Positions 2,456 to 61,800 of a stretch of DNA of 64,000 nucleotides are shown here, one piece after another. The first letter of the stretch is position 1; the number at the start of each line of letters is the position of its first letter. Source of the DNA: an uncultured archaeon. Lineage in GTDB: Archaea > Aenigmatarchaeota > Aenigmatarchaeia > GW2011-AR5. The notes under the pieces are model-generated. The model did no database searches. It worked only from the letters and a program-made list of their open reading frames with translations, and was not told the DNA's origin. The position numbers were made by a program, and so were the translations under genes. The stretch lies in the NCBI GenBank assembly GCA_964373255.1, contig CAYJTG010000003.1, positions 25,759 to 89,758 of the forward strand, in the 5' to 3' direction.

Positions 2456-3082
2456 TTGTATCGTCTGCGGGCGAGCAGAAAGGGCGATATTAGTGCTTTA
2501 AAGATACATGAGTTAATTCTGAATATGCCAAACTTCTATTTTGACATAGAAACTACTGGTTTGGATCCTAAAGACCATAAGATAATAACAATACAGTTCA
2601 TGGAACTGGATTCTATAACATCCAAGCCAAAGGGAGAGTTGATTATACTAAAAGAATGGGAATCCTCGGAAAGAGATATGCTAAAAGAATTCATTGAACG
2701 TTCCAGAATAACAGACGATTACCCGTTTTCTTTTGTCCCCGTTGGCTATAACCTGAAATTCGAGCATAATTTTTTGATAGAAAGGACAAGGGTAAACAAA
2801 TTACAGGTTGTAGATATTTTGAAAAGACCTTTCATAGATTTGATACCTTTTGGAATAGTGATGAACAAAGGTCAGTTCAAGGGGTCAGGGTTAGACAAGA
2901 TAACAGGAAAGAATCGAGAAGGCAGCGTAATACCTAATTGGTATGACAAAAAGAACTATGACGAAATAATAAAATACATACAGAATGAGGCTGAAGAATT
3001 TGTTAAATTTTCTTCTTGGTTATACAAAGAGCTTCCACCAATGCTCAACAAATTCAAGAAAGAGCATGGAATAAATAAATAG
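2456..3082 (+). CDS. DnaQ-like (DEDD superfamily) 3'-5' exonuclease domain protein, YprB / RNase_H_2-like.
   Basis: Exo I motif 'YFDIETTGLDP'. Exo II-like motif 'GYNLKFEHNFL'. 208 aa. Confidence 0.55.
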   Translation: MYRLRASRKGDISALKIHELILNMPNFYFDIETTGLDPKDHKIITIQFMELDSITSKPKGELIILKEWESSERDMLKEFIERSRITDDYPFSFVPVGYNLKFEHNFLIERTRVNKLQVVDILKRPFIDLIPFGIVMNKGQFKGSGLDKITGKNREGSVIPNWYDKKNYDEIIKYIQNEAEEFVKFSSWLYKELPPMLNKFKKEHGINK

Positions 3083-9031: not shown

Positions 9032-10054
9032 GTGACAACAATTCCTAGAAATTTTGCCGACAGACTTCTTGATGCAATAGATGAAAGACGGAACCCGAGT
9101 TGTGTAGGTCTTGATCCAACAATAACTGATATACCTGATCACATGAAACGTGCTGTAATTGAAGACTATAAAGTATACGAAATAGATCCTTACGAAAGAT
9201 TAGAAGTTCTATTTCAGGCGACCGGTGAAGTTCTGTTCAGATTCAATAAGGCTATAATTGATGCAACCCACGATATTGTTCCTGTATTCAAACCGAACAT
9301 TGCATTTTACGAATGCTATGGGCCTGAAGGCGAAAAGGCATTCTTAAGAACTTTAGAATACATAAAACAAAAAGGCACACTTGTAATAGCCGACGTGAAA
9401 AGAGAGGACATAGGAAAAACTGCAGGCTTCTACTCAAAAGGCTTTTTAGGAACTGTTGAGCTTATCGACGGAACTTCTATTTCTACTTTCAATGCAGATG
9501 CTGTTACATTAAGTCCTTACGTAGGTTCAGACAGCATTGGCGAATTTACAAAGGTTTGTGCAGAACATGGAAAAGGTGCATTTGTTCTTGACAAAACGTC
9601 CAATCCTTCTTCTGGCGAGTTGCAGGACATGAAATTTGATGATCGACACGGTGGAAGATTGATGTATGAACAGATGGCACTCCTAATAGATCAGTGGGGG
9701 CAACAGCTTAAGGGTGAGAGAGGTTACACATCGTTGGGCGCCGTAGTAGGCGCAATCTATCCAGAACCAGCAGCAAGATGTAGGGAAATGATGGAAAATG
9801 CTTTTATTCTTGTTCCAGCTTATGGAGCGCAAGGTGGCAAAGGCAAGGACACAATACCAAATTTCAATGAAGACGGTTACGGTGCTATTGTAAATAATGC
9901 TAGCAAACTAATATTTGCATACAAGGATGATCTATACAGACCAAAATTCAGTCCAGCCGAATTTGCTAAAGCAGCAAGAGAATCTGCTCTTGTAATGCGA
10001 GAAGACATAGTTGGTGCAATGCGTTCTTCTGGTCGAATACCTTCTGGGTGGTAG
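9032..10054 (+). CDS. pyrF: Orotidine-5'-phosphate decarboxylase, long type-2 form.
   Basis: 'NPSCVGLDPT' followed by 'VIADVKREDIGKTA', the OMPDC type-2 signature. 340 aa. Confidence 0.75.
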   Translation: MTTIPRNFADRLLDAIDERRNPSCVGLDPTITDIPDHMKRAVIEDYKVYEIDPYERLEVLFQATGEVLFRFNKAIIDATHDIVPVFKPNIAFYECYGPEGEKAFLRTLEYIKQKGTLVIADVKREDIGKTAGFYSKGFLGTVELIDGTSISTFNADAVTLSPYVGSDSIGEFTKVCAEHGKGAFVLDKTSNPSSGELQDMKFDDRHGGRLMYEQMALLIDQWGQQLKGERGYTSLGAVVGAIYPEPAARCREMMENAFILVPAYGAQGGKGKDTIPNFNEDGYGAIVNNASKLIFAYKDDLYRPKFSPAEFAKAARESALVMREDIVGAMRSSGRIPSGW

Positions 10055-10055
10055 A

Positions 10056-10742
10056 ATGATAAGTCTTGATCAGTACAACAAATTTTTACTCGACAATGAT
10101 CTTGTTGGCTTTTTTGATCCTTACATAACTTTAAAATCAGGGCGCCCTGGACATTGGTACGTAAATATGCGAGACGCTTTGAAAAATCTTAATCTAAAAC
10201 GCCAGTTAGCTATGTATATGTATGATCTTTGTGGCGAATTAGCACTAAAACCTGATTATTTCTTGGGTGTGCCTGATGGAGCAAAACCACTCGGCGAAGA
10301 GATGAATAATCTCATAAATTACAAAAAACCTTTTGAGATATCAGCAGCGGTTCTACGCGCTGGCAAAAAAGCTCATGGAGATCCGTTGAACAGATATTCA
10401 GTAGGACCACTTACACCGGGAAATCACGTAGTTCTTGTTGAAGACGTGACCACAACCGGCGGCTCTTCGATGGAATATATAATGCGCCTGCAGGAAATTG
10501 GTATATGGATCGATGCACTTGTTTCCTGCGTCAATCGCTTTGAACGTAGGGATCGTAAAAGAACGGTAGAAGATGTGTTGTTAAGAGATTATAATGTAAA
10601 ATATGCGGCAAGAACCGATGCAAGGACTCTCTTGCCTGCTGCCGTTAAGAAGTTTAACCCAAACGAAAAAATCATAACTGATATAGAAGCTTACTACAGA
10701 CAATATGGCGTTGAGCCAATAGAACTTCCTAAAGCTGCTTAA
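10056..10742 (+). CDS. pyrE: Orotate phosphoribosyltransferase.
   Basis: PRPP-binding motif 'VVLVEDVTTTGGS'. Start taken at the Met of MISLDQY, immediately after the pyrF stop. The ORF track begins at 10011, upstream and overlapping pyrF. Confidence 0.85.
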   Translation: MISLDQYNKFLLDNDLVGFFDPYITLKSGRPGHWYVNMRDALKNLNLKRQLAMYMYDLCGELALKPDYFLGVPDGAKPLGEEMNNLINYKKPFEISAAVLRAGKKAHGDPLNRYSVGPLTPGNHVVLVEDVTTTGGSSMEYIMRLQEIGIWIDALVSCVNRFERRDRKRTVEDVLLRDYNVKYAARTDARTLLPAAVKKFNPNEKIITDIEAYYRQYGVEPIELPKAA

Positions 10743-10743
10743 T

Positions 10744-13521
10744 TCACTTCCAGTATATCTTCGTCCTGGCAAAATTTTTTTCGGCTTCTAGTATATCCTT
10801 GTAGAACTGCTCTTTATTGGTATGGAGCATGGCTAAAATTCTGGCTGCTGTTTGCGGGCCTACGCCGTGGCCCGCCAATGCCTCGACAGCCTTTCGCCCG
10901 TAAACAACGACCAAGTCGGACGACCGGCGGATTGTCTGGAATTCGTTGAGTTCTTCTTTTGTCAACTGTTTCTTTTTGAGCTTCTTTTTCACGATATTTT
11001 GCGCGCTTATCTGCCTTGGTCTTAATATTGCTATCAACGCTGACCTGCATTTGGGGCACTGCGGTTGTTCATTGACATCCTTTACCTTTGTGATCAGTGT
11101 GTAGTCCCCGCAGTTCGTGCACAGAAGCCTTATCCTCGTCAATAGAAGCCTCCTCTTGAATGCCCTGAAGATCTCGCCTTCCGGCATTTTTGGCTTCATG
11201 ACTTCCGAGAACTGCTGAACAAGACCCAGTTCGCCCAGATGGCTCAGTCCTTGACTTACGTGCAGTTTTATTTCGCCGTTCTTGATCTTTTCGATCACGT
11301 CTTTTGCGTTTTTAATGTCCATTTTTTCAAGAAATAGTTCTCGCATCGTCTCTGTGTAGGCAGGGCTATCGGCGTATGACGCAACTATCTTGCTGACGTT
11401 TATTTTATCGTATTTCGCGGCTTTCGATATTATGCCAAAGCGCCTCGCCACATGAACGAACCGCCATTTGAACATTGAAGACCTTTCTATCGAATCCTTC
11501 AGCACGTCATCAAAATTCTTCGCCTCCTTGAGAATTCTTTTTACGTCATCGGGTTTCGCAGTTGTCTGGAGCATTATTCTGTACGGGTCATTCTTTATGT
11601 TGACAGACACTCCTGTTTCTGCCGTAATGATGGCGCCCAAGTATTTTGCAAGTGTATTATTGACCAATGATCCAAAGCATGCGTGAACGACGATAAAGTT
11701 CTTGTAGTTTTCGACGAGCACATTTTTTTCATCGGGCACGATGTGCGATGCCTTGTGCTTTGAAAGTATATCCGCCATTTCTTCCAGCGCGTGCTTATCG
11801 ATATCAAACTCTTCCTCAACTTTGTCAAGGTTTTCAGAAGCAATGAGCCGCCTCAGCCGCCCGACACCATGCGCTATACTAAGTGGGACAGGTATTAGCT
11901 CGCCCTCCCACGCGGGTATAGCAGACTCGATGTCTTCCACTGGTTCGACAATAACCTTGTTGCCATCAACTTGAATTATTTTCCATGCACGGCCGGCGCA
12001 AACAAATCTGTTGCCGCTCTGCCCGTGCTCGGCCACGAACTCTTCATCCAAGCTGCCTATAGGCTCGTTCTCAACGATTGAAATAATTCTGTATTGCACT
12101 TTGTTTGGTATCGTTGACAGGTTTTCAAAGTAGTAGTTCCACGCCCGCCTCTTTCTATTAACCAAATACCCTGTTTTTGTTTTATCTAGCCATACGAGGT
12201 GCAGGCTTTCCAGAAACTCAAGAATTTTTATAAATTCCTTTTTTGTGAGATTCCTGTAGGGGTACGCCCCTTTCACAATCTCGTATATTTTTTCATCCGG
12301 TACCGAATAGTATTCAAGCGCTATGCCGATTATTTGTGTTGCCAGTACGTCAAATGCGTCTGTATGTATTTTTACATCTTCCAGTTTTTTGTCGACGGCG
12401 TTCTTTGCGATAACGGCCGACTCAAAAGCGTCTTCTTCGCCTGTAATAATTATGCCCTTGCTCGTTCTTCCAACGCCGTGGCCGCTGCGGCCAATGCGTT
12501 GTATCAACCTTGAGACCTGTCTAGGCGATAAATATTGGACAACTAAATCTATGGAGCCTATGTCAATGCCAAGCTCCAGGCTGCTCGTAGCTATCAGTGA
12601 TTTCAGTGTTTGTGCTTTGAATTTCTGCTCAGCGCTTATTCTTCGCTCTTTTGAGAGCGACCCGTGATGAACGGCCTGCATAAGCTCCCTGTCAAGAGTT
12701 CTTAACCTCGATGACAGCACTTCAGCAGTCTCGCGCGTATTTGTAAATGTCAGAACAGACGTATGGCTCTTAATCAGTTCGTACAAGTGACGCAGCCGCG
12801 TGGTCGTGTTTATCCCAATGAACAGTTCATCGGCAATAGTTCTGTCCTGCATTGTTGGCTTGGGTGATTCTACCTTAATGGTGTATTTTTTTTCTGAATC
12901 GGCGTGTATAATTTTTACATTGCTCCCAAGAAATTCCGCAACTGTCTGTGGCGAACCGACCGTAGCCGACAACCCAATGCGTTGAAAATCGCCGCAAAGC
13001 TCTTTCAGACGCTCCAGTGCTACAGATAATTGAACGCCCCGCTTGTTTTCGACAAGCTCATGGATTTCGTCGACTACAACGAACTTAACATTTTTGAGGT
13101 GCTCGCGCATCGTTTCCCCGGTCAATATAGCCTGAAGCGTTTCTGGTGTTGTAAGAAGGCAGTGTGGGGGTATTTCCCTCTGTGCGGTCCTTTCTACCTG
13201 CGAAGTATCGCCGTGTCGTACTGATATGTCAAGATCAAGCTTGTCGGCCCACCACACCAAACGGTCGAGAAGGTCCCTGTTCAGTGAGCGCAGCGGTGTT
13301 ATATAGAGTATAGATATAGGTTTTAGCGTATCTTTCGCCGCCTTGTCAAAAAGAGGCAGCATTGCCGTTTCTGTTTTGCCGATACCGGTAGGTGCAATTA
13401 TAAGAATATTCGAACCATTCATTATTTCCGGCATACCCATCTTCTGTGCTAGCGTTGGCTCGATAAATCCCTTGTCTCTTATCAGCTTCTGCATTTTTTC
13501 TGAGAACATCTGAAATGTCAT
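10744..13521 (-). CDS. lhr: Lhr-type large ATP-dependent helicase (superfamily 2, DEAD/DEAH), Lhr-core.
   Basis: 925 aa. Motif I 'APTGIGKT'. DEIH box 'VVVDEIHEL'. Helicase C domain. C-terminal CxxC...CxxC ribbon and HhH-like tail. Confidence 0.85.
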   Translation of the reverse strand: MTFQMFSEKMQKLIRDKGFIEPTLAQKMGMPEIMNGSNILIIAPTGIGKTETAMLPLFDKAAKDTLKPISILYITPLRSLNRDLLDRLVWWADKLDLDISVRHGDTSQVERTAQREIPPHCLLTTPETLQAILTGETMREHLKNVKFVVVDEIHELVENKRGVQLSVALERLKELCGDFQRIGLSATVGSPQTVAEFLGSNVKIIHADSEKKYTIKVESPKPTMQDRTIADELFIGINTTTRLRHLYELIKSHTSVLTFTNTRETAEVLSSRLRTLDRELMQAVHHGSLSKERRISAEQKFKAQTLKSLIATSSLELGIDIGSIDLVVQYLSPRQVSRLIQRIGRSGHGVGRTSKGIIITGEEDAFESAVIAKNAVDKKLEDVKIHTDAFDVLATQIIGIALEYYSVPDEKIYEIVKGAYPYRNLTKKEFIKILEFLESLHLVWLDKTKTGYLVNRKRRAWNYYFENLSTIPNKVQYRIISIVENEPIGSLDEEFVAEHGQSGNRFVCAGRAWKIIQVDGNKVIVEPVEDIESAIPAWEGELIPVPLSIAHGVGRLRRLIASENLDKVEEEFDIDKHALEEMADILSKHKASHIVPDEKNVLVENYKNFIVVHACFGSLVNNTLAKYLGAIITAETGVSVNIKNDPYRIMLQTTAKPDDVKRILKEAKNFDDVLKDSIERSSMFKWRFVHVARRFGIISKAAKYDKINVSKIVASYADSPAYTETMRELFLEKMDIKNAKDVIEKIKNGEIKLHVSQGLSHLGELGLVQQFSEVMKPKMPEGEIFRAFKRRLLLTRIRLLCTNCGDYTLITKVKDVNEQPQCPKCRSALIAILRPRQISAQNIVKKKLKKKQLTKEELNEFQTIRRSSDLVVVYGRKAVEALAGHGVGPQTAARILAMLHTNKEQFYKDILEAEKNFARTKIYWK

Positions 13522-13522
13522 T

Positions 13523-14215
13523 TTAATCGATCCTCATGTTATTTATTGCACCTATGTCTGTTCCGTCAAGAAGATAAGCACGGGCGTTCTTTGTGTCGAG
13601 CATCTTTGCTATCGGCCCTAACAGCTCGTCTTTGTTAACAATAGTTGCGCCGCAAAGTTCATTAAATGCCGGCATTATAACAAGTGTTTTGCCATTTAAC
13701 CTCTTCGCCAGCTTTCCTATAACCCAGACCGGTTCAACGTAGACAGCACCAAGCTTATCCCTGAACTTTACGTGAGGCTGGTTGTGCCCTATAACTATCG
13801 TTCTTTTGCCTGTTTTGACATTTCTATGGCCGTGTGTAAGAAAATAGTTTTCGATAGTAATAGAGCTCTTCACTCTTATATTTTTACCCCGCGGTACCAT
13901 TTTTTCTATACCGCCGTCGTGGTTTCCTTTTACAATTATTATATCGTCAAAGTCTAGCAACAAGAAAAACCGGTCGAGCTCGAATTTTTCCTGAAGCGAG
14001 AATCCAAGAACCCTGTGCTTTACATCGCCCAAAAGAATGAGTTTCTTTGTTCGTGTGATTTTTTTCAGCTTATTTATTCTTTTTGCCAGCTTCTCCGGCT
14101 GGCTGGGCATAACTATGCCTTTTTCATAAATGTCTTTTGTTATTCCTATGTGCAGGTCTGCGACGATCAAACATTTGCCTATTTTTAGTGCCGGATAGTT
14201 TTTCAGGAATCTCAT
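13523..14215 (-). CDS. Metallophosphoesterase (MPE), the usual operon partner of Lhr.
   Basis: Calcineurin-like motifs 'VADLHIG', 'LGDVKH', 'VKGNHDG', 'THGH'. Stop is adjacent to the lhr start on the same strand. Confidence 0.8.
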   Translation of the reverse strand: MRFLKNYPALKIGKCLIVADLHIGITKDIYEKGIVMPSQPEKLAKRINKLKKITRTKKLILLGDVKHRVLGFSLQEKFELDRFFLLLDFDDIIIVKGNHDGGIEKMVPRGKNIRVKSSITIENYFLTHGHRNVKTGKRTIVIGHNQPHVKFRDKLGAVYVEPVWVIGKLAKRLNGKTLVIMPAFNELCGATIVNKDELLGPIAKMLDTKNARAYLLDGTDIGAINNMRID

Positions 14216-25278: not shown

Positions 25279-26897
25279 GCAATTACACCTGTAACATTAT
25301 ATATTAAAACGGAGTACGCCACCATATCATAATGTGTATAATTTTCAAGCCATCCATAGCAATTTTTATCGAGTGTGAGAAAAAATACACCAACGATATG
25401 TATACCATTTTGAGGTATGCATTTTTCTCTTACATACGATTTAACATAATTATTTGTATAAGATTCAGGAAGTGGTAGTGATAAATAAGCTACTGTTATA
25501 TTTTTCTCTTTTGTGTAAGACGAAACATATTTTAGCCACTGCCCCCAATCCACGTCTGTATCACTTAAATAAAGATAGCCATTTTTTGGTCCACCAACAA
25601 ATTCATTAAAGTAAGATATATTATATGGTAGTATAAGCAGTGCTTCTACTACACTCCACAAAATAAGTAAAATAACAACAATATAAAATAATCTTTTTTT
25701 ACTACCCGAAAATTTTACATGCAAAATTTTACCTAGCATAACAAACATGAAAGGATACATAGGTAAGAGATGCCTAAGACCTATATTTAGTTTTAATAAT
25801 GACAATGCAACAAACAATACAAATAGGGGCAATAAGAGGAAAATTTCATTATAGAAATCAAACTTAATTTTTCTCAAGGCAAATGTAAAAAATAATAGAA
25901 CAAACAGTATTAGAGGTATAGTAGATTTGATTAAAAAAGCTAAGATATAATAGTGAATCCAGCCAGTACTAGAGTATTCGCCAAATAAATATGCGCCGTG
26001 CCCTACGATTTTATGATAGAAATTGTACCCAAATGCAGTAAAATAACTCGTCGCAGGAAGAGGAACATCCATTAAAGTTATAATAGTATTTTTATTACTG
26101 CTAAATGTTTGATTGATGAAATCTTGCGATTTCTCGATAGAATGAACAGTATTATTAATCGTAGACATCTGAAATCCATAAAATGCCCATATTACGATAA
26201 ATGATATTAGATAATAGATTATAATTAATCTTATATTTTTTCGCACCGATCTGAAAATATATAAAAATAGAAACAAGGTTATTGGTATTAATAAAAGTGC
26301 AGTAAATTTACTCAAAAGGGCAAGTCCTAAAAATAAACCTGCTATTATTGAATATTTAATTGTTTTATTGCTGCTAAATTTCCAAAAAACATACATTGCT
26401 ATGAATATAAATGTAGCAGCCACGATGTCTGTGGTTGCCAGAGAGCTATGTGCCAATATAGTTGGTTCAAAGCTGAATAGTGCAAGAACAAACAAAGCTG
26501 CTTTGTCACCATATAGTTTTCGAGCCCATATAAAAATAAAAACACCTAAAATTAAGGACGTAAAAGCAATAGGTAATCGTGTAATAAATAAATAGTAATC
26601 TATTTCATAAGAGTTTGCAATGTTTGACATGTTGAATGGTTTATTTTGCCATACAGGATTATTGTCAAAATAGAGGAAAAAACTGTTAATATAATAAGCC
26701 AGTGGTGGATGAAACCTGTATGCAAAAGGTGAAAAATCTCCGTGCTGTACAGTATAGCGTCCTGTACCTGGATAGAATTGTTCGTCAAGGACGGGCGATT
26801 GTGATGAAATTATGTAAATAATTTGCAAAAGCATGAAAATCAGAATTAATGCTGCGATAATTTCTGTCCTTTTTTTTGTGATATGAACTAAATGCAT
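25275..26897 (-). CDS. GT-C-fold membrane glycosyltransferase of the PMT_2/ArnT type, a second paralog.
   Basis: 540 aa and polytopic. N-terminal 'LDEQFYPGTGRYTVQHGDF...YRFHPPLAYYI' loop typical of PMT_2. Confidence 0.6.
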   Translation of the reverse strand: MHLVHITKKRTEIIAALILIFMLLQIIYIISSQSPVLDEQFYPGTGRYTVQHGDFSPFAYRFHPPLAYYINSFFLYFDNNPVWQNKPFNMSNIANSYEIDYYLFITRLPIAFTSLILGVFIFIWARKLYGDKAALFVLALFSFEPTILAHSSLATTDIVAATFIFIAMYVFWKFSSNKTIKYSIIAGLFLGLALLSKFTALLLIPITLFLFLYIFRSVRKNIRLIIIYYLISFIVIWAFYGFQMSTINNTVHSIEKSQDFINQTFSSNKNTIITLMDVPLPATSYFTAFGYNFYHKIVGHGAYLFGEYSSTGWIHYYILAFLIKSTIPLILFVLLFFTFALRKIKFDFYNEIFLLLPLFVLFVALSLLKLNIGLRHLLPMYPFMFVMLGKILHVKFSGSKKRLFYIVVILLILWSVVEALLILPYNISYFNEFVGGPKNGYLYLSDTDVDWGQWLKYVSSYTKEKNITVAYLSLPLPESYTNNYVKSYVREKCIPQNGIHIVGVFFLTLDKNCYGWLENYTHYDMVAYSVLIYNVTGVIA

Positions 26898-47182: not shown

Positions 47183-48361
47183 TTAGACTGTCTCGTTGAA
47201 CCGTACCCTGAAAAGCTTGACCTCTCCGCCCCAGCTATTTACGAATTCGAAACTGTTTAGACCTACGCCGTTGAACAGAAACATCCTTGTAAACAGCGCA
47301 TTTTCCAGTTCTGGTGTCATAAAGAGGAGTGTTTGCCTTGAACCGTCTAACCATAAGGTCCCCTTGACCTCTGCCGCTGCGTCGTTATACAAATTGAATG
47401 CACCCTGACGGTCGAAGTACCATAATTTCTCTACGCGAAGAAGGTTGTTTTGCTGCTGCAGAAAAGGCCTGAGCGTGCCATTTGTCTCGTACAAAACAAA
47501 CGCGCTGTCTTGTGCAACCCTGTAATAGAATGCTATAGCGTTCTGGTCTAAAACAGGTCGCGCGGATTCTAGCGGTATTATGACGTAGTTGTGCCGCTGC
47601 CCATAGTTCGGCGCATTTGTCGGGTTCCACGTGGCGAAATAAGTCCACCACTGGCTTTTACCTATAAGATCCGAGGACGCGATATAGTAGAGTTCATCGC
47701 AGTCGGGCTTTTTATAATCTTTCAGAATTTTCACAGCTAACGTCTCGTTGCCTGTGAACAGTGTTGTTCCGATGTCCTGTATTCGTGCCCTTGTAACAGT
47801 TCCGTCTTTATAAAACAATACGCGGTTTATGCCGTGGTCTTGCTGCTCAATAACGATCCCGGTTTTTGTTTCGTCGGTTGGCAATGTTATAGTAGAACCC
47901 TGAGATGCTCCATCAAATACAATAGCACGCCGAGCTATGCCAGTTATAAAATGCCCTGGGTCCCAGTACGTTGCGATGACGGCGCATTCCTTTGTATTGT
48001 TCTTTATCCAGTTAAGTGCCTCCCACCAGTTGTCCGAAAGCACGGTACCAGAACACTCTGAGATTCTTAGACTATCGAGGTAATAGACATTCACAAAAAA
48101 TATGAATATTATAACCAAGAGAACGAATGAAAACAGTTCTCTGTTATTTATCCTTTTGCCAAAACGTGCACCTATGGCTATAAGAAATATAACAGCGGCA
48201 CCTATATAGAGCTGTAATGAATATCCGTCAATCCAGTCCTGGGACGTCATGGAACCACAGGTTGTTTGTACGCCACTAAAGAGAATCAACAGCACATATA
48301 TGATTACTATACTGATGATGCCTGCAGTAAATTTATTCGCGTTTATGTCCATGCTAATCAC
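47183..48361 (-). CDS. aglB: C-terminal part of AglB/STT3 oligosaccharyltransferase. Three TM helices followed by a periplasmic catalytic domain with a WWDYG-type motif.
   Basis: 'TYWDPGHFITGIARRAIVFDGAS' lies immediately after the third TM helix, as the WWDYG block does in STT3/PglB/AglB. The reading frame is offset from the upstream TM ORF. Confidence 0.55.
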   Translation of the reverse strand: MISMDINANKFTAGIISIVIIYVLLILFSGVQTTCGSMTSQDWIDGYSLQLYIGAAVIFLIAIGARFGKRINNRELFSFVLLVIIFIFFVNVYYLDSLRISECSGTVLSDNWWEALNWIKNNTKECAVIATYWDPGHFITGIARRAIVFDGASQGSTITLPTDETKTGIVIEQQDHGINRVLFYKDGTVTRARIQDIGTTLFTGNETLAVKILKDYKKPDCDELYYIASSDLIGKSQWWTYFATWNPTNAPNYGQRHNYVIIPLESARPVLDQNAIAFYYRVAQDSAFVLYETNGTLRPFLQQQNNLLRVEKLWYFDRQGAFNLYNDAAAEVKGTLWLDGSRQTLLFMTPELENALFTRMFLFNGVGLNSFEFVNSWGGEVKLFRVRFNETV

Positions 48362-49541
48362 TCATGTTCTTATCCTCACCGCTAGCCAAACGGAACAATT
48401 TAGAAAATAAAATTCCTGCAGCTATAGCTACCGGGGCTGAAAACAGTATTGTAAATCTTATAGCAACAAGTGTTGCCAAGAATGGGCCAACAAACCATAT
48501 GGCGAGCAAAATAATTGTGTCAAGGTGCTGCCTCTTTTTTATAAACGAAAATAATAGGTAGATAATACAGAATATCATGAGGAAAAATGGCGAGCCTATG
48601 CGGTTTATTATTTCCTTGGCGTCAGAAGGGTTCTGAAGCTCAGCGACAGACACATAAACATTCGGGAAGGTTCTTGCTTCGCTTTTGATTTCCGGAAACT
48701 GGATTGGTCCTGTTATCGTGGAAACGATAGGGTTGACGCCGAAAACCGGAACGGTAAAGGCGAAGAACAGCAAAATAATTATGACATAAGAAAATATCGG
48801 AGACCTATAATTGTGTAATGTTTGCCTTGCATTTTTTGTTTTTATGAAACTTGTAACGATCTTTAGAAACACAAATCCTGTTATCAGCCAAACAACAAAC
48901 CAGAATCCGCTCCATGTATAGTACCACGCTGTAAGTGCTAAGCCGGCTGCAATTGAAAGTACGATTGTTTTCTTTCGAAATCCTTGTTCCAACGATATTT
49001 TATGCGCTACAACAAAAAGTGCCATGACAACTAGAGGCATCAGAAGGACTATTCCGTCGCTGTCCGGGTCGCCGCCAAGCGTTCGCGCTATAATCGATGC
49101 GTCAAACATGATAAATGCCGCTGCCAGCACACCCGCCTTCCTGTCGTACAGTGTTTTGGCCAAAAAATACATTGGTATAGCCATCAGGGCAGCAAGAAAT
49201 GCTGGAAACCATATAAGAAACTGAAATAGTGACGTGCCTTGCGAAAATATATGGTAAAACATATATGCGTATGCGCTGAAATAGACGTAGAAATCTTGGC
49301 TTATAACTCTGTCAACACCAAAAGGCGCCTGCGCAAGTTCATTTCTTGCTGGAAGTGCTCCACCGTTGTTAACTATATCTTCTATATCTCTGGCAAAATT
49401 GTACGAGTCAATATTTCTGAGGTAAGGCCACCTGTAATCTATAAGTCTTATATACATCCCAAGAATCATGATTACAACAAGAGCTATGATCACCCAGCGT
49501 TTACTCAGAAATGCCAACAACGTGTTCTTGTTTATTAACAT
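48354..49541 (-). CDS. aglB: N-terminal membrane domain of AglB/STT3 oligosaccharyltransferase (about 10 TM helices).
   Basis: 395-aa polytopic ORF with first-loop acidic motifs ('RNIDSYNFARDIEDIV', 'GGDPDSDG'). It ends in a TAG that overlaps the start of the downstream catalytic-domain ORF by 8 nt in another frame. Confidence 0.5.
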   Translation of the reverse strand: MLINKNTLLAFLSKRWVIIALVVIMILGMYIRLIDYRWPYLRNIDSYNFARDIEDIVNNGGALPARNELAQAPFGVDRVISQDFYVYFSAYAYMFYHIFSQGTSLFQFLIWFPAFLAALMAIPMYFLAKTLYDRKAGVLAAAFIMFDASIIARTLGGDPDSDGIVLLMPLVVMALFVVAHKISLEQGFRKKTIVLSIAAGLALTAWYYTWSGFWFVVWLITGFVFLKIVTSFIKTKNARQTLHNYRSPIFSYVIIILLFFAFTVPVFGVNPIVSTITGPIQFPEIKSEARTFPNVYVSVAELQNPSDAKEIINRIGSPFFLMIFCIIYLLFSFIKKRQHLDTIILLAIWFVGPFLATLVAIRFTILFSAPVAIAAGILFSKLFRLASGEDKNMSD

Positions 49542-55509: not shown

Positions 55510-55695
55510 GTGATAACGATGGGAGACGCATTGGTTGTAAAAAGCAAGGTTCGTGCATGGGCAAAGAAGAAGAAAATGAATCTTGGTGGCGACGCCGTTG
55601 ACGCGCTAAACAAGGAAATTGTAAGGCTTGTTGACCGCGCATCGGAGCGTGCAAAGGCTAATAGAAGGTCGACGATAAAGGGCAGAGACGTTTAA
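55510..55695 (+). CDS. Small histone-fold-like DNA-binding protein, apparently truncated (alpha1-L1-alpha2-L2, no alpha3).
   Basis: 'GDAVDALNKEIVRLVDRASERAKANRRSTIKGRDV' parallels archaeal histone alpha2-L2 '...ASEAIKLARHAGRKTIKAEDI'. 61 aa. Likely start at the Met of MGDAL (about 55519). Confidence 0.45.
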   Translation: MITMGDALVVKSKVRAWAKKKKMNLGGDAVDALNKEIVRLVDRASERAKANRRSTIKGRDV

Positions 55696-56199: not shown

Positions 56200-58929
56200 T
56201 TATTCAAGTACGACCTTCTTTCCCAATGAGCCGTGGAAGCTGATGAGGACCTCTCCGCCGCAGTCGCACAGGCCTCTTATAGGCGCGCGCCTGTAGCTAC
56301 GGTTGCACGATTTGCACACAAATTCGTCCCATCCGCCCAGTTCGCCGGCTGTATTTTCGTTCGTATCTTCGGTATGGTTGTATGCGATGTCGATGTCCTT
56401 TTTTGTGGTGCGCCTTTTTCCCAGCAGCAGGTCTCCTAAGCTTACCTGCCGTCCGTTTCCAAGCAGCTCTGACTTTTCGACGCCTACCGCAGAGAGAATT
56501 CTTTCTATCGGCGGAAACAGCTGGCTCTCGATATAGTAGTTCGAGTCGATTGGTATGTTGTGCTTCTCGGCGTACGCCGGGTCTTCTGCGCGCTTTGAAA
56601 GCATCAGGTTGCCCTTGATAATAACAAATCCTATCCGATCGCCGATCTTTGGCGCGTCGTATGGGTTTCTTGCCGCAAGCTTCCTTGCAAGCTCTATGTG
56701 CGGAAGAATGCCTTTGTAGCTGTCCAGCCCCTGTGTGATGCCCTTTATGATTGTCAGTTTTTCCATCGGTATCTCGTTCTTGCGCAGCTTGTTCAATATG
56801 CCCTTTATGTAATCTATTGCCTTCTGTACGTCCCCTTCCTTGAGTATTATGTTCAGCGTTGTCATCATCGTCTCGCTCACGAGGGCACACCAATCTCTTC
56901 GCACGGTCTCGATGCCGCGCATGTCTATCTCATCGGTCCACCCGTTATCTGTCTGTTCGAACTTCCAGCCGGCGTATCTCTTTTTTGACAGGATAAGAAA
57001 CGTCCTGTATATTTTCTCAAACTGCAGTTCCAGCTGGCCTGGCAGGTTTTCTGTGACGAATTCTGATATCTTTTTGCCAGTCTCTTTGGCCTCATCCAGA
57101 TTGGTCGTTTTTGTCTTGATGAACATGGAATCCGTGTCAGCGTACAGAACCTCAAGCCCAAATTCTTTTTCCACCAGATTTTTTGTCTTTTCCAGATTTT
57201 CGCGCCCGAAGGCTGTTATAGAGTTCGCAACGTCGATCATGTAAAGCCTTGCCCTCACGTATCCCGTATACCCGTAGAACGAGTTTGACATGTCCTTCAA
57301 TGCGAGCTGCTTGGCGTTGAGGATTCTTCTTTCTTCGCCGGTTTTTGTTTTCATGAGTCCTTTAATTTTGCTTCGCGTCTCGATAAGCCTTTCCAAAACA
57401 GAGGGAAATATTCCCTTGTATAAGTCTTGGTCCACGAAAAGTGTGCCGATCGGCGATTCGTGGTGCTTTAGATCTGCTGTCTCTGATGTAAGGACGCTGT
57501 CTGGCGAAATGTTGTACGTCCTCATGATGGAAGGGTAGAGGCTCTTGAAATCCAGGACTATGACGCACGTATCTGCGTGCAGGCCTTTATTTGGCTCCAG
57601 CACGGTGGCGCCCTTGAGCTCTTTTTCTTCTCGTTCTTTTGTGCGCCTGTAGAGCTCCTGCCTGGAGTGCGCCGATGACATGACAACATCCCTTTTCTTA
57701 AACTCGTGAAGAAGCATTGTCTCTATCCTTTTTGTCTGCCCACCGAAGGTATCCTGAAGAAGGACGCCTGATATCTTTGAAAGCTCAAAGAATTTGTTGA
57801 GCATTCCCTTTTCTATGAGCAGTTTCATCGACAGGTCCGCGTCCTTTCTCGAGTACTCAATGAATTTTACCATATTCTGCCTTGTGCTGTTCCAGAGCTC
57901 TGCCATCTCCGAGTACGCAACCCCGTGTTTTTCCTCGTCGAGGAGCTTCTTTGCTACTGTTCTTAGGTCGTAGCGGTGCAGCTTTACCCACGGGTCTCTT
58001 TTCAGTATCTGGTAGGGGTCAACAACAACGCGCCCGGCTACAATAAACTCCTGGGTTATGCCATAAGTTTTGGAAAATGCGTCCTTGTCACACCTTCCTA
58101 TTGACAAAGGCAGCTTGTTTTGCTTTAGCCTTTCGATTATGTAAGGCAGGTCAAATGAATTTATGTTGTAGCCTGTTATTATGTCGGGATCATAAGAATC
58201 GATAATGCACAGCAACTCTTCGAGCATCTCCTTTTCGTTTCTAAAGCCCCTTACGCCGTCGCCAAAAAATGGTTTCGCCACAAGAACTGTGGATTTTGAG
58301 CCCCTGAAGTCCGGCCTGAAAGAGAGCGATACCATAACGATTGGGTCGTGCCTCGCGTCAACGGGCTTTTTGTCGTCCGAAGGTATGCATTCAATATCAA
58401 GGGCCATATAGCTGAGTGGCGCGTTCTCCAGGCTCTCAACGGGGTTTATTTTGTCTGCCTTGTAAGCCGCGACCTTTGACCTCACTGTTTTTTGTTCGTG
58501 TGTGCCTTCGACCTCTACCCACTGCATGCCGTTAAGTCCGTGGTCTACCATGAACCTGTACTTGAACATGATATCCGCTTCGTACACGTCCTGTGCGATA
58601 CCTGTGGATATGAGCTTCTCCCTGACGTGCGGCACGTCCTGCGGGTTGAACAGCATGACCTTGAGCATCTTTGTTTTGCTCTTCTGATAGCCGAGCGGGA
58701 TGAATTTTTCTGTTGGCTCGATGTCTTTTATTTCTTTCATGCCCTCGACGGCCGTAATGGCTTTTCCTGCCGTCATTTTTTCGCTCAGCCTCATGTAGAA
58801 GTAGGGAGTTACCTTGTCGTAAAGTACACAGCACGGTGCCCCGTTTTCTGTGCGCCCAAATATTCTTATAATGGGCTTGTTAGTATTGACAAAATAGTCT
58901 ATGTCTAATATCTGCATTTTGAAAAGCAT
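56200..58929 (-). CDS. polB: Family-B DNA polymerase (PolB) with an intact 3'-5' exonuclease domain and a C-terminal Cys4 zinc-ribbon extension.
   Basis: Exo I 'LDIECIP', Exo II 'YNINSFDLPYI', Exo III 'YSRKDADL'. Pol motif A 'DFKSLYPSI', motif B 'KDMSNSFYGY', motif C 'YADTDS'. C-terminal 'CKSCNRSYRRAPIRGLCDCGG'. Start at the Met of MLFKMQILDIDY, preceded by a GGGGGT Shine-Dalgarno-like sequence. The ORF track extends 5' to 59037. Confidence 0.9.
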   Translation of the reverse strand: MLFKMQILDIDYFVNTNKPIIRIFGRTENGAPCCVLYDKVTPYFYMRLSEKMTAGKAITAVEGMKEIKDIEPTEKFIPLGYQKSKTKMLKVMLFNPQDVPHVREKLISTGIAQDVYEADIMFKYRFMVDHGLNGMQWVEVEGTHEQKTVRSKVAAYKADKINPVESLENAPLSYMALDIECIPSDDKKPVDARHDPIVMVSLSFRPDFRGSKSTVLVAKPFFGDGVRGFRNEKEMLEELLCIIDSYDPDIITGYNINSFDLPYIIERLKQNKLPLSIGRCDKDAFSKTYGITQEFIVAGRVVVDPYQILKRDPWVKLHRYDLRTVAKKLLDEEKHGVAYSEMAELWNSTRQNMVKFIEYSRKDADLSMKLLIEKGMLNKFFELSKISGVLLQDTFGGQTKRIETMLLHEFKKRDVVMSSAHSRQELYRRTKEREEKELKGATVLEPNKGLHADTCVIVLDFKSLYPSIMRTYNISPDSVLTSETADLKHHESPIGTLFVDQDLYKGIFPSVLERLIETRSKIKGLMKTKTGEERRILNAKQLALKDMSNSFYGYTGYVRARLYMIDVANSITAFGRENLEKTKNLVEKEFGLEVLYADTDSMFIKTKTTNLDEAKETGKKISEFVTENLPGQLELQFEKIYRTFLILSKKRYAGWKFEQTDNGWTDEIDMRGIETVRRDWCALVSETMMTTLNIILKEGDVQKAIDYIKGILNKLRKNEIPMEKLTIIKGITQGLDSYKGILPHIELARKLAARNPYDAPKIGDRIGFVIIKGNLMLSKRAEDPAYAEKHNIPIDSNYYIESQLFPPIERILSAVGVEKSELLGNGRQVSLGDLLLGKRRTTKKDIDIAYNHTEDTNENTAGELGGWDEFVCKSCNRSYRRAPIRGLCDCGGEVLISFHGSLGKKVVLE

Positions 58930-58981: not shown

Positions 58982-60115
58982 TTACTTTCCGAATATCTGG
59001 ACCTGCTTTGCATCCCTTGTTTCAAGGTCGATGACAACCGGCCGGAAGTCTGCGAGCATCGACCCTGATGTGGCTATTGTAACTGATTTGTAATTCGTGA
59101 CCTGTGACCCGCTGGCGTGGCCGAAGCACACGATGTCCGGGGTGTCTTCGAGCACAAAGTAATTTTCCTCTGATACCGCCTTTCCGTGGCCGAGGTAACG
59201 CTTTTTTAGCATGCTTAATTCAAATTCGTGTATGACGAGTATCTTTACCCCGTTTATCTCCAGAAACGCCGGATCGCTCAGTGATAATATTTTCCCCGTG
59301 CTGAACTGAACCGGCAGTCTTGGATAAGCGCCGCGTGTGTCCCGCTCGCCCGGGATAAATACAACCTCTTTTTCTCTGCAGTACCTGTCTACCATTCGTT
59401 CGAACGTGCCTATATCACCGACGTCGCCTGCCACAACAAGGTATTTTATATCTTCATTCTCAAACCATAAAAAGAATTTTTCTATTTCACCGATAGGCGC
59501 CTCATCGATCATCAGGTTAGAAACAAGGCACACTTTCCCCCAGCCGACAGTTGGCTGTCGCAGCGGTATGTCCGGCTGTATGACCTGCTTTCCGAACAGG
59601 ATGTTTTTTGATGAAATGGCCCTTATCGCAACGACGTCGTCTGTACCTATATCAGGCTTACCCTCAAAAATGATTGAGGCCGCCCCTGTGTTGTCTTCGA
59701 TATCGACGGTGGTCTTGTCGCCGTTGTCCCTTATGTCACGCACAATTCCTATAACGTAGGACTCATCGAGGTACGCGCCGACCTTGTTTATCGAGACGAA
59801 CGGTTTTCTTATTCTGCTTGTCAGTATTTCTCTGATTTTTTCGTACTTTGCCCTGTAAAAATTTGCAAAATCATCTGGTGTCAGCGTGGTTTTCGGCGCT
59901 GTCAGATTTTTGATTATTTTTATTTCGTCTTTTTTTGCTGCGCTTTCTCTGTGCGCAAAATCCGGCCTATCGAGTACGAGGTCTCCGCCAACCATGCCGC
60001 TGATTTGTTCGTCTGTTATCGTTGCTAACAAATCCGGTGTCAGAAGCTTGCCCTTGCTCAGCAGCTTTTTTACGATTTCCTCTTTCATGCTAAAGATACC
60101 GCCTTTATAGATCAA
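58982..60115 (-). CDS. DP1-like protein, homologous to the PolD small subunit / eukaryotic polymerase B-subunit. Its calcineurin-like phosphoesterase motifs look degenerate.
   Basis: 'FLWFENEDIKYLVVAGDVGDIG' matches the DP1 'YLxIAGDxVDG' block. The DxH position reads 'VSNLMID', the GNHD position reads 'IPGERD', and the GHxH position reads 'CFGHAS'. 377 aa. Confidence 0.55.
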   Translation of the reverse strand: MIYKGGIFSMKEEIVKKLLSKGKLLTPDLLATITDEQISGMVGGDLVLDRPDFAHRESAAKKDEIKIIKNLTAPKTTLTPDDFANFYRAKYEKIREILTSRIRKPFVSINKVGAYLDESYVIGIVRDIRDNGDKTTVDIEDNTGAASIIFEGKPDIGTDDVVAIRAISSKNILFGKQVIQPDIPLRQPTVGWGKVCLVSNLMIDEAPIGEIEKFFLWFENEDIKYLVVAGDVGDIGTFERMVDRYCREKEVVFIPGERDTRGAYPRLPVQFSTGKILSLSDPAFLEINGVKILVIHEFELSMLKKRYLGHGKAVSEENYFVLEDTPDIVCFGHASGSQVTNYKSVTIATSGSMLADFRPVVIDLETRDAKQVQIFGK

Positions 60116-60130
60116 AACGTCTCTTGATGA

Positions 60131-61390
60131 TTAGCTGAACTTGCCGTCAAGAAACTGCACTACCCTGTCAAAGGCACTTCCGGTAACCGATAAAACAATT
60201 TCCCTCGTTCTTCCATGACGACCGTTTGATACGACCTTCGTCGTTATTATGCTCAGCATGTCTAATTCGCCTATAAGATCGCTGACCCTGCGCTGTGTTA
60301 ACGGTTTCAGCCCGTTGCCATCACAGGTTGCCTTATACGCCTCGTATACGTCCCCTGTAAATATCCTTTTGTCGTTCCATCCTTTCTGGGTTTTCATTTT
60401 TTCTGTGACCTTGATGATTGCGTATAAAACTGCCTGAGAGTGTGTTGGCTGGGCTTTTATGCCTTCTGTTATGCGGTCCAGGTCCATTTTCTGCTCAGCC
60501 ATGTCAACGTGCTGCTCTTCAACGGCGCTGTGCCCCATTCGTTCGGCAACCTCGCCTGCCACGCGCAAGAGGTCTAGCGCCCTTCTTGCGTCACCGTGCT
60601 CCTGTGCAGCTATGGCAGCGCACTTGTTTATAACCGCCTCGTCAACAGCGCTTGGTATAAAGCCGTGTAACACCCTTTCTGTGAGTATGTCTTTAATCTG
60701 GGCTGCGTTGTACGGCCTGAACAAGATTTCTTCCTCAGACAGCGATGATCTGATGCGGAGGTCTAGGTTGTTCTGCAGTGAGAGGTCGTTGGTTATGCCG
60801 ACAACGGTTATGTAGCTGTTCTTGAGCTCGTGATTTATGCGTGTGAGGTTGTACAAAAACTCGTCCCCGATCTTCTTCACCAAGGTGTCGACCTCATCCA
60901 GAACAAGAATAATTGTGCTATTCATACGTTCAACCCTGTCAAAAAATTTTCTGTAAAGCACGTTTGTCGGCAGGCCTGTATCAGGGACGTGTTCACCAAG
61001 CTCTTTCAGCAGCTGTGCGACAAGCCTGTATTCTGTGTCTGCCACCTTCTTCATCTTACAGTTTATGTAGACAACGCGGAGCTTTGGGCTGTTTGCCATA
61101 GAAATGAGCTGGCTTGCGACAAATTTCATGGTTATTGTCTTTCCGGTACCGCACGTGCCGTAAATAAATATGTTGTTTGGCCGGTAGCCCTTCAGCACCG
61201 GCGCGAGGACCGAGCTTATCTGTCCTATTTCGTTGTCACGGTGTGTGATCTTCTCAGGAATAAACAGCGATGTCAAATAGTTCTTGTCCCTAAAGATGTT
61301 GCCCTTATGTATGTATTGAGAAAATATGTTGCTACTAATGCTTGTCTTTTGGACCAGTCTTGACACTACCAACACCCCACCAGAAATCAT
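60131..61390 (-). CDS. orc1: Orc1/Cdc6 replication initiator, an AAA+ ATPase with a C-terminal winged helix.
   Basis: Walker A 'GTCGTGKT', Walker B 'ILVLDEVD', sensor motifs. 419 aa. Confidence 0.9.
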   Translation of the reverse strand: MISGGVLVVSRLVQKTSISSNIFSQYIHKGNIFRDKNYLTSLFIPEKITHRDNEIGQISSVLAPVLKGYRPNNIFIYGTCGTGKTITMKFVASQLISMANSPKLRVVYINCKMKKVADTEYRLVAQLLKELGEHVPDTGLPTNVLYRKFFDRVERMNSTIILVLDEVDTLVKKIGDEFLYNLTRINHELKNSYITVVGITNDLSLQNNLDLRIRSSLSEEEILFRPYNAAQIKDILTERVLHGFIPSAVDEAVINKCAAIAAQEHGDARRALDLLRVAGEVAERMGHSAVEEQHVDMAEQKMDLDRITEGIKAQPTHSQAVLYAIIKVTEKMKTQKGWNDKRIFTGDVYEAYKATCDGNGLKPLTQRRVSDLIGELDMLSIITTKVVSNGRHGRTREIVLSVTGSAFDRVVQFLDGKFS

Positions 61391-61800
61391 TACATTATGA
61401 CAACCACGCCAAACAGTAATGATTCAACCACAATATAAGTAAAAACAACCCAAAGTAATTACACCATTATTTCTCTTGGAGGATATATAAACATATCTCT
61501 ACTGGAAATCAACGTTACTGAAAATATAGTTTCAAAACAAGACAGCTCCCCTATATTTCTTGTGGAACTTTTAAACAAACAATTACATAAATAACACTGT
61601 TATAAGAAAGAAAGGGTACGTTTTGTGTTTCTTTTCTTCAAAACTTGTTCTCACCACTAGTCGTTCATTAGAAATAATGGGGTCTGCTATACAGAAATGC
61701 GTATAAATTGCGTGATACCGTACTAATTCCCGATAAAACCAATAATAATCCAACAACACAATAACAGACCAAACCAATTTGTTCTTGCTTATTCCACAAT
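61391..61800. promoter_or_regulatory. Candidate replication origin (oriC): an AT-rich intergenic region next to orc1 carrying ORB-like TCTnnTGGA repeats.
   Basis: Direct repeats TCTCTTGGAGG (~61472), TCTACTGGAAA (~61498) and TCTTGTGGAAC (~61558). An inverted copy ATTCCACAAT (~61791) lies across an AT-rich stretch (61570-61790). The arrangement sits directly upstream of orc1. Confidence 0.4.

Follow-up and report, generated by a model that had tools for sequence, protein, structure and literature searches.

A DP1-like subunit with an eroded phosphoesterase site encoded next to a B-family DNA polymerase in an Aenigmatarchaeota replication operon

All three replicative polymerases of eukaryotes consist of a B-family catalytic subunit and a catalytically dead DP1-like B-subunit joined by a C-terminal zinc module, and the origin of this PolB/PolD chimera is a central question for the origin of the eukaryotic replisome. 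The 64,000-nucleotide stretch of DNA analysed here (the window; positions 25,759 to 89,758 of contig CAYJTG010000003.1, from an uncultured archaeon of the Aenigmatarchaeota) carries on its minus strand a gene (58982..60088) for a protein resembling DP1, the proofreading subunit of PolD, in which the phosphoesterase (PDE) motifs looked inactivated to the initial annotation. The locus raises the question of what such a protein does and with which polymerase. Our answer, which we hold with a probability of roughly 85%, is that it serves without catalytic activity as one of the two subunits of a replicative polymerase of the eukaryote-like kind, and that its partner is the B-family polymerase (PolB) encoded by the adjacent gene. 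The homology and fold of the protein, the loss of its catalytic residues, the conserved operon, the intact motifs of PolB and the homology of the PolB C-terminal domain (CTD) to the Zn-III finger of DP2 are observations. The arrangement of an inactivated DP1 with PolB in this lineage is already published, the concept in 2020 and the interaction in 2025. What we add is a further well-resolved archaeal instance, in which PolB with a DP2-type zinc finger and an inactivated DP1 share one operon with Orc1/Cdc6, and a family-wide view of graded active-site decay.

The phosphoesterase site and fold of the DP1-like protein

Motifs were placed by HMMER/phmmer alignment to DP1 of Pyrococcus abyssi and Thermococcus kodakarensis and by a MAFFT alignment with the canonical DP1 sequences P0112, P0114 and P0117; the positions agreed between these two independent aligners. 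The peptides quoted in the initial annotation (YLVVAGDVGDIG, VSNLMID, GERD and GHAS) are all present and correspond to DP1 motifs II, I, III and V, respectively. In motif I (VSNLMID, residues 189-195, 59504..59524; all motifs of the protein are on the minus strand) the DxH of DP1 is replaced by N191 and M193. The GNHD of motif III (PGERD, residues 246-250, 59339..59353) has become G-E248-R249-D250, with Glu for the Asn ligand and Arg for the catalytic His, and in motif V (GHAS, residues 323-326, 59111..59122) the first His is retained as H324 and the second is S326. Motif II (YLVVAGDVGDIG, residues 216-227, 59408..59443) keeps its ligand D222 and motif IV (VIHEF, 59222..59236) keeps H287. Four of the seven metal ligands are therefore replaced (D to N191, H to M193, N to E248, H to S326) and three are left. 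The claim that the metal-binding residues had been exchanged holds for these four and for the catalytic His; it had passed over D222, H287 and H324.

The His lost from motif III is the proton donor, H451 of P. abyssi DP1, which is R249 here. This assignment can be read from the aligned structures, wild-type 5ihe having PGNHDA where the exonuclease-deficient 6hmf, labelled 'H451 proof-reading deficient variant', has PGNADA. According to Raia et al. (PMC6355029), H451 donates the proton in catalysis and can be mutated without loss of metal binding, and the H451A exchange alone renders P. abyssi PolD exonuclease-deficient.

A sequencing error, a frameshift or a misalignment as the source of the replacements is ruled out. 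Three independent Logan assemblies carry the identical DP1-like protein followed by PolB (Cdc6 is visible upstream in one of the three, the only one long enough), the site is degraded in 11 of 11 clade relatives, and the catalytic residues are lost under the gap placement of HMMER as well as that of MAFFT.

An AlphaFold2 model built on an alignment of 87 family sequences (mean predicted local distance difference test score, pLDDT, 93.6; predicted template modelling score, pTM, 0.86) consists of a short helical domain at the N-terminus, an OB region of five strands and, as the third part, an alpha/beta sandwich of the calcineurin/Mre11-type PDE fold. The best Foldseek match of this model in the PDB was P. 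abyssi DP1 (E 3e-23, template modelling (TM) score about 0.7; E about 1e-22 for 9f2a_A, 8ppt_A and 5ihe), followed by the B-subunits of human and yeast Pol epsilon, Pol delta/zeta and Pol alpha (E 1e-16 to 1e-18; chains 7pfo_A, 6p1h_B, 6tny_B, 4y97 and 5vbn_A), with generic metallophosphatases ranking well below the B-subunits. At the sequence level, phmmer against the PDB found DP1 of P. abyssi and T. kodakarensis (E about 1e-6), and the family profile matched archaeal DP1 only (E about 1e-29), no eukaryotic B-subunit being found in the PDB at E<=1. Judged by the predicted model, the family is tied to the eukaryotic B-subunits by fold only, without a detectable sequence link. With alignment, fold and family comparison in agreement, the view that this is a DP1-type subunit whose phosphoesterase site is inactivated as in the eukaryotic B-subunits is well supported.

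The open reading frame (ORF) in its maximal extent spans 58982..60115 (minus) from a TTG start. The ATG at 60088, which is preceded by a GGCGG Shine-Dalgarno-like box, is the likely start, giving a product of 368 amino acids plus stop (58982..60088) that is 100% identical to database protein P0001. The N-terminal helical domain (about residues 1-52; 59933..60088, minus) has model helices at 2-11, 18-23 and 41-51 and contains GKLLTPD (residues 13-19; 60032-60052, minus), a G-x-LLTP string that matches GYLLTPS at the N-terminus of P. abyssi DP1 (8ppt_A residues 39-69) and in which G13, L15 and L16 are nearly invariant across the family. The OB fold (about residues 105-170; 59579..59776, minus), with model strands at 109-170, aligns with the OB domain of DP1; it includes IEDNTG (59684-59701, minus) with the invariant columns E131-D132, and is followed by the linker PDIPLR (59558-59575, minus). 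The family-invariant residues S99, E131, D132, P175, P273, R297, P317 and D318 include no metal ligand, and at least E131, D132 and P175 sit in the OB fold or the OB-PDE linker. Such a distribution would fit selection for partner binding over catalysis.

The adjacent polymerase and its zinc module

The PolB gene (909 amino acids; 56200..58929, minus) starts 52 nucleotides past the stop codon of the DP1-like gene. Its product matches the Pfam families DNA_pol_B (2e-110) and DNA_pol_B_exo1 (2e-34), and in the PDB Pfu-type PolB and Pol delta at about 1e-107. The exonuclease motifs Exo I (DIE), Exo II (NSFD) and Exo III (YSRKD) and the polymerase motifs A (DFKSLYPS), B (KDMSNSFYGY) and C (YADTDS) are intact, and all six are conserved in 27 related PolBs. 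Some of the related polymerases carry insertions of ~420-480 amino acids, in motif B (L016, L022, L023, L027) or in motif C (L031), which split NS|FYGY or YGD|TDS and end in HN; they look like inteins, and the PolB of the window has none.

The C-terminus of PolB holds a zinc module, GWDEFVCKSCNRSYRRAPIRGLCDCGGEVLISF (56236..56334, minus), of the form CxxC-x14-CxC with an RRxP loop, and the protein ends with GWDEFVCKSCNRSYRRAPIRGLCDCGG. The Cys4 tail is conserved in 27/27 related PolBs (consensus GWEEFxCxKCxKSYRRMPLxGxCECGG), the loop being kept as YRRAP in the window protein. A profile of the tail matches the Zn-III finger of DP2 (T. kodakarensis residues 1127-1159, E=1.7e-5; P. abyssi 1119-1151, E=2.6e-4), and its match to the CTD of human Pol epsilon is non-significant (E=2.5). 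In PolD, Zn-III docks with R1131/R1132 of its KxRRxP loop in the acidic OB/PDE groove of DP1, and the affinity of a 20-residue Zn-III peptide for DP1 is in the nanomolar range (PMC6355029). It is because the probable partner is the adjacent PolB with a DP2-type Zn-III module, a context that the initial annotation had missed, that the eukaryote-like interpretation works.

The gene order Orc1/Cdc6, DP1-like, PolB (all on the minus strand, with the DP1-like gene in the middle) is widespread among relatives. We examined 39 related loci from GTDB species representatives, scanned with 24 of the closer family sequences; these loci and all named homologues belong to Candidatus Aenigmatarchaeota or to unclassified archaeal metagenome-assembled genomes (MAGs), and the nearest GTDB relative of the DP1-like protein is only 53% identical to it. 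Cdc6 lies immediately upstream of the DP1-like gene in all 39 loci, and PolB adjoins it in 29, in 27 of them immediately downstream and co-directional, in the other 2 inverted. No PolB match was found in the remaining 10 loci. Three of these, L009, L032 and L037, have enough downstream sequence to see other genes in the place of PolB, and most of the others are on contigs that break off shortly past DP1. The three form one sub-clade (DP1-like gene at about 10000-11100) that keeps the Cdc6-DP1 pair without an adjacent PolB; their DP1s retain 4-6 ligands, and the gene directly after DP1 is of the geranylgeranyl-reductase-like, SecDF or TctA kind, genes that are located past PolB in the window, so that PolB is relocated or lost in this sub-clade. 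Two full Cdc6-DP1-PolB loci (L015 and L017) occur in one MAG, RIFCSPLOWO2_01_FULL_48_10. L017 equals L018 (archaeon GW2011_AR5) in tblastn identities over the three genes and in DP1 motif strings, and the double locus looks like bin contamination or a strain mixture, not a true duplication.

Alternatively, the protein could still belong, as small subunit, to an ordinary PolD; the gene for DP2 would then lie in another part of the genome, and the vicinity of PolB would be incidental. Only 64 kb of the genome is in view, and in L009, L032 and L037 PolB does not adjoin the DP1-like gene. We nevertheless consider this quite improbable: the gene order is conserved in 27/39 loci, the DP2-type Zn-III docking module is present on PolB in every relative, the window contains no ORF of at least 1000 amino acids, i.e. 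none of DP2 size, and such a PolD, lacking proofreading, would be unusual. In addition, DP2 is reported to be missing from Aenigmatarchaeota (PMC7544198, PMC12680538), and DP1 binds the CTD of PolB in yeast two-hybrid assays (PMC12680538).

If the DP1-like protein is indeed the second subunit of PolB, the following mechanism can be envisaged. The protein would descend from DP1 of PolD, keeping the three-part architecture while its dinuclear metal site was dismantled, and its catalytic partner would be the PolB encoded 52 nucleotides downstream, not DP2. PolB would supply both the polymerase and the 3'-5' proofreading activity, and its DP2-derived Zn-III finger with the RRxP loop would hold the DP1-like subunit by docking as in the OB/PDE groove of PolD. 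The role of the DP1-like subunit may then be that of a scaffold, giving stability to PolB and anchoring it at the replisome. In T. kodakarensis, DP1N binds Gins51C (PMC9023282), so the N-terminal domain is probably the part that links the enzyme to the CMG helicase via GINS, as in Thermococcus. The exonuclease of PolB would have made the DP1 nuclease redundant, leading to relaxed selection on the PDE site.

Erosion of the active site across the family

The state of the site was compared in 100 core members of the family, arranged in a neighbour-joining tree without support values. The proton-donor His is present in none of them. Their ligand counts range widely, 32 members holding all seven, 13 holding six and 36 three or fewer; members with an intact site read DLH, GD, GNxD, H and GHTH. 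The seven-ligand sequences share as little as 36% identity and are paraphyletic in the tree, and the strongly eroded forms comprise the clade of the window protein, a second large clade and several isolated tips. By these counts the clade of the window protein is among the most eroded. Its other 11 members (50-55% identity in the case of nine) keep two to four of the seven ligands, and both motif I residues are gone in 10 of the 11, P0010 retaining the Asp. In the whole clade (n = 12) Lys or Arg has taken the place of the former His in 11 members and Glu that of the Asn in 8, and Lys/Arg beside this Glu may fill the former metal pocket. Lost positions vary within the clade (G/S/N, M/K/N, S/D/T/E/N/Q).

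The pattern of residues looks like a decay of the metal site in steps that has taken place more than once. It suggests that the catalytic residue was lost first and that lineage-specific erosion of the metal site followed, some lineages still selecting for metal binding. A metal-dependent role may continue, because the complete seven-ligand site is held in about a third of the lineages at identities down to 36%. A tentative scenario, to which we give rather less than an even chance, is that of a stepwise pseudo-enzyme: the His would have been lost once, in the common ancestor, a metal-dependent role (structural, or a residual nuclease beside the PolB exonuclease) would persist in about a third of the lineages, and the site would have been eroded separately in several clades. 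If this is true, comparison of intact-site and eroded-site members could reveal which function keeps the 'dead' PDE domain of B-subunits under selection. In the parts of the literature consulted we found no description of this graded decay (0/100 with the His, 32/100 with the full ligand set).

The conservation of D222, H287 and H324 in the clade of the window protein, with Glu for Asn in 8/12 members, can be seen from another angle: the protein may still be an active nuclease or phosphoesterase with a remodelled site, for example with one metal on D222, H287 and H324 plus E248. The match to Pfam Metallophos_2 just at threshold (27.5 vs 27 bits) and the full ligand sets of 32/100 relatives go in the same direction. 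We regard such an activity as unlikely, since H451A by itself abolishes the exonuclease of P. abyssi PolD (PMC6355029) and the window protein lacks the proton donor together with the two ligands of motif I, the Asn of motif III and the second His of motif V. Moreover, the many different residues at the lost positions indicate relaxed selection, not a new site.

Several points nevertheless weigh against a non-catalytic subunit working with PolB. Metallophos_2-type enzymes with GNxD can be active without the motif III His, so that its loss, taken by itself, would be no proof of inactivity. The three remaining ligands are still conserved within the degraded clade, and for a family of which a third keeps the complete metal site some metal-dependent role remains conceivable. 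The Pfam family DNA_pol_E_B (PF04042) scores under its gathering threshold on the DP1-like protein (19.9 vs 29.1 bits). The lack of a DP2-sized ORF concerns the 64-kb window, and the absence of DP2 at the level of the genome is taken from the literature only. Finally, binding of the window protein to PolB would follow by analogy, being carried over from the yeast two-hybrid result published for Aenigmatarchaeota.

Erosion of catalytic motifs that differ even between close relatives would also be expected of a decaying pseudogene, a non-functional DP1 remnant left after PolB had replaced PolD. This seems to us the least credible explanation. Full-length, uninterrupted ORFs are found in >100 sequences with identities down to 36%, one subgroup has 44 invariant columns, the fold is predicted with high confidence, the position in the operon is conserved, and the gene has a Shine-Dalgarno-like box. 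The protein is, furthermore, identical in independent assemblies, and the interaction detected by yeast two-hybrid (PMC12680538) likewise speaks against a remnant.

A viral or mobile genetic element origin of the small subunit was also considered: a scan of IMG/VR yielded no relative, its sensitivity being restricted to two peptide patterns.

Related systems and the surroundings of the operon

The closest known system is the group of inactivated DP1 proteins of Aenigmarchaeota ('Aenigma_GB_GCA_002789635-like') and the co-occurring B6-aenigma1 PolB described by Kazlauskas, Krupovic et al. (2020, NAR, PMC7544198). They report that members of the aenigmarchaeal PolB group B6 carry Zn motifs at the C-terminus, the one-motif B6-aenigma1 type being most like the DP2 zinc motif; most Aenigmarchaeota are without DP2, and the Aenigma DP1 is inactive, which the authors explain by acquisition of a PolB with its own exonuclease. 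The window locus agrees with this system in the inactivated PDE of the DP1 homologue, in the PolB with a single C-terminal Cys4 motif nearest to DP2 Zn-III, in the host lineage (all named relatives are from Aenigmatarchaeota MAGs) and in the evolutionary reading, the nuclease being dispensable because PolB has its own exonuclease. There is no essential difference, and the window protein is a further member of the group. The later study (Nat Ecol Evol 2025, PMC12680538) reports, from yeast two-hybrid and AF3 modelling, that DP1 binds PolB-DP2CTD in both lineages studied, one of which is Aenigmatarchaeota.

In canonical DP1 (P. abyssi, T. kodakarensis; PDB 5IHE, 6HMF, 8PPT, 6KNB), the best match of the window protein in both sequence and fold, the domain order is the same (N-terminal helical, OB, PDE) and the blocks LEDxTG, PDIPL, KRRxL and VPDI are shared. 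The window protein differs in its length (~370 amino acids vs 480-620), in the loss of the catalytic His and of 4/7 ligands, and in having PolB instead of DP2 as the partner gene. Its gene is directly downstream of cdc6, by a probable origin, as is that of DP1 in the oriC-cdc6-DP1-DP2 locus of Pyrococcus.

With the eukaryotic B-subunits (POLA2/Pol12, POLD2/Pol31 and POLE2/Dpb2) the window protein shares the OB fold and the catalytically dead PDE fold, as well as the pairing with a B-family polymerase via a C-terminal Zn module and proofreading by the catalytic subunit, the interaction in our case being deduced from the genes and the literature. It is unlike them in lacking profile similarity, in scoring below threshold with DNA_pol_E_B and in having three ligands left. 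The CTD of the window PolB carries a single Zn motif and little of the helical bundle, whereas eukaryotic CTDs have CysA and CysB.

The initial annotation had gone further and proposed an archaeal intermediate on the way to a purely structural B-subunit. This evolutionary step is not demonstrable here, and the family profile matches archaeal DP1 only. On whether the group is ancestral or a side branch, the two published accounts point different ways. Kazlauskas et al. consider that the ancestor of the B-subunit was perhaps inactivated already in archaea and that eukaryotic B-subunits might derive from the Aenigma DP1 group (PMC7544198). The 2025 paper calls the aenigmarchaeal CTD 'degenerate', finds the most Pol delta-like polymerase in Asgard Baldrarchaeia, and regards the two-motif 'aenigma2' contigs as mis-binned Baldrarchaeia (PMC12680538). 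For the system, "archaeal counterpart" of the eukaryotic B-subunit arrangement, possibly a side branch, is the most fitting description.

At the upstream end of the operon, the Orc1/Cdc6 initiator gene (60131..61390, minus; Pfam Cdc6_C 1e-25, Cdc6_lid 7e-24, and AAA) ends 43 nucleotides upstream of the ATG of the DP1-like gene at 60088 and 16 nucleotides from the TTG at 60115. The 398-nucleotide spacer upstream of orc1/cdc6 contains three boxes resembling origin recognition boxes (ORB), at 61462-61480 (minus), 61548-61566 (minus) and 61664-61682 (plus). They match the pattern TYCANNAGAAATAWWGGKG, for which 0.01 matches were expected by chance. An AT-rich stretch lies between the inverted box and the nearer direct box, the third box being closer to cdc6, and six related loci of Aenigmatarchaeota have the core ORB motif, too, a short distance upstream of cdc6. 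The arrangement of these boxes points to a probable chromosomal replication origin.

Just downstream of PolB, on the plus strand, lies an ORF of 61 amino acids (55510-55695; MITMGDALVVKSKVRAWAKKKK...ERAKANRRSTIKGRDV), which had no Pfam match at E<=1e-5 and which may resemble small archaeal histone-fold or DUF1931-type proteins. A second calcineurin-like metallophosphoesterase, of 230 amino acids, is encoded elsewhere in the window, immediately after an Lhr-type large helicase (925 amino acids; DEAD, Helicase_C, WH_Lhr and DEAD_assoc domains); the two (10744-14215, minus) are the known Lhr-MPE gene pair, unrelated to the PDE of the DP1-like protein. A stand-alone RNase_H_2 superfamily protein of 208 amino acids (2456-3082, plus), divergent from a RadB/Rad51-like ATPase (1728-2402, minus), resembles the exonuclease domain of PolB. 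A low-GC block at about 20000-49500 (31-38%, the flanks having 40-48%) is rich in genes of the glycosyltransferase and sugar-nucleotide classes and is closed by an STT3/AglB oligosaccharyltransferase (48354-49541); it is probably a surface-glycan island, our annotation covering the part of the block outside 22.8-46 kb.

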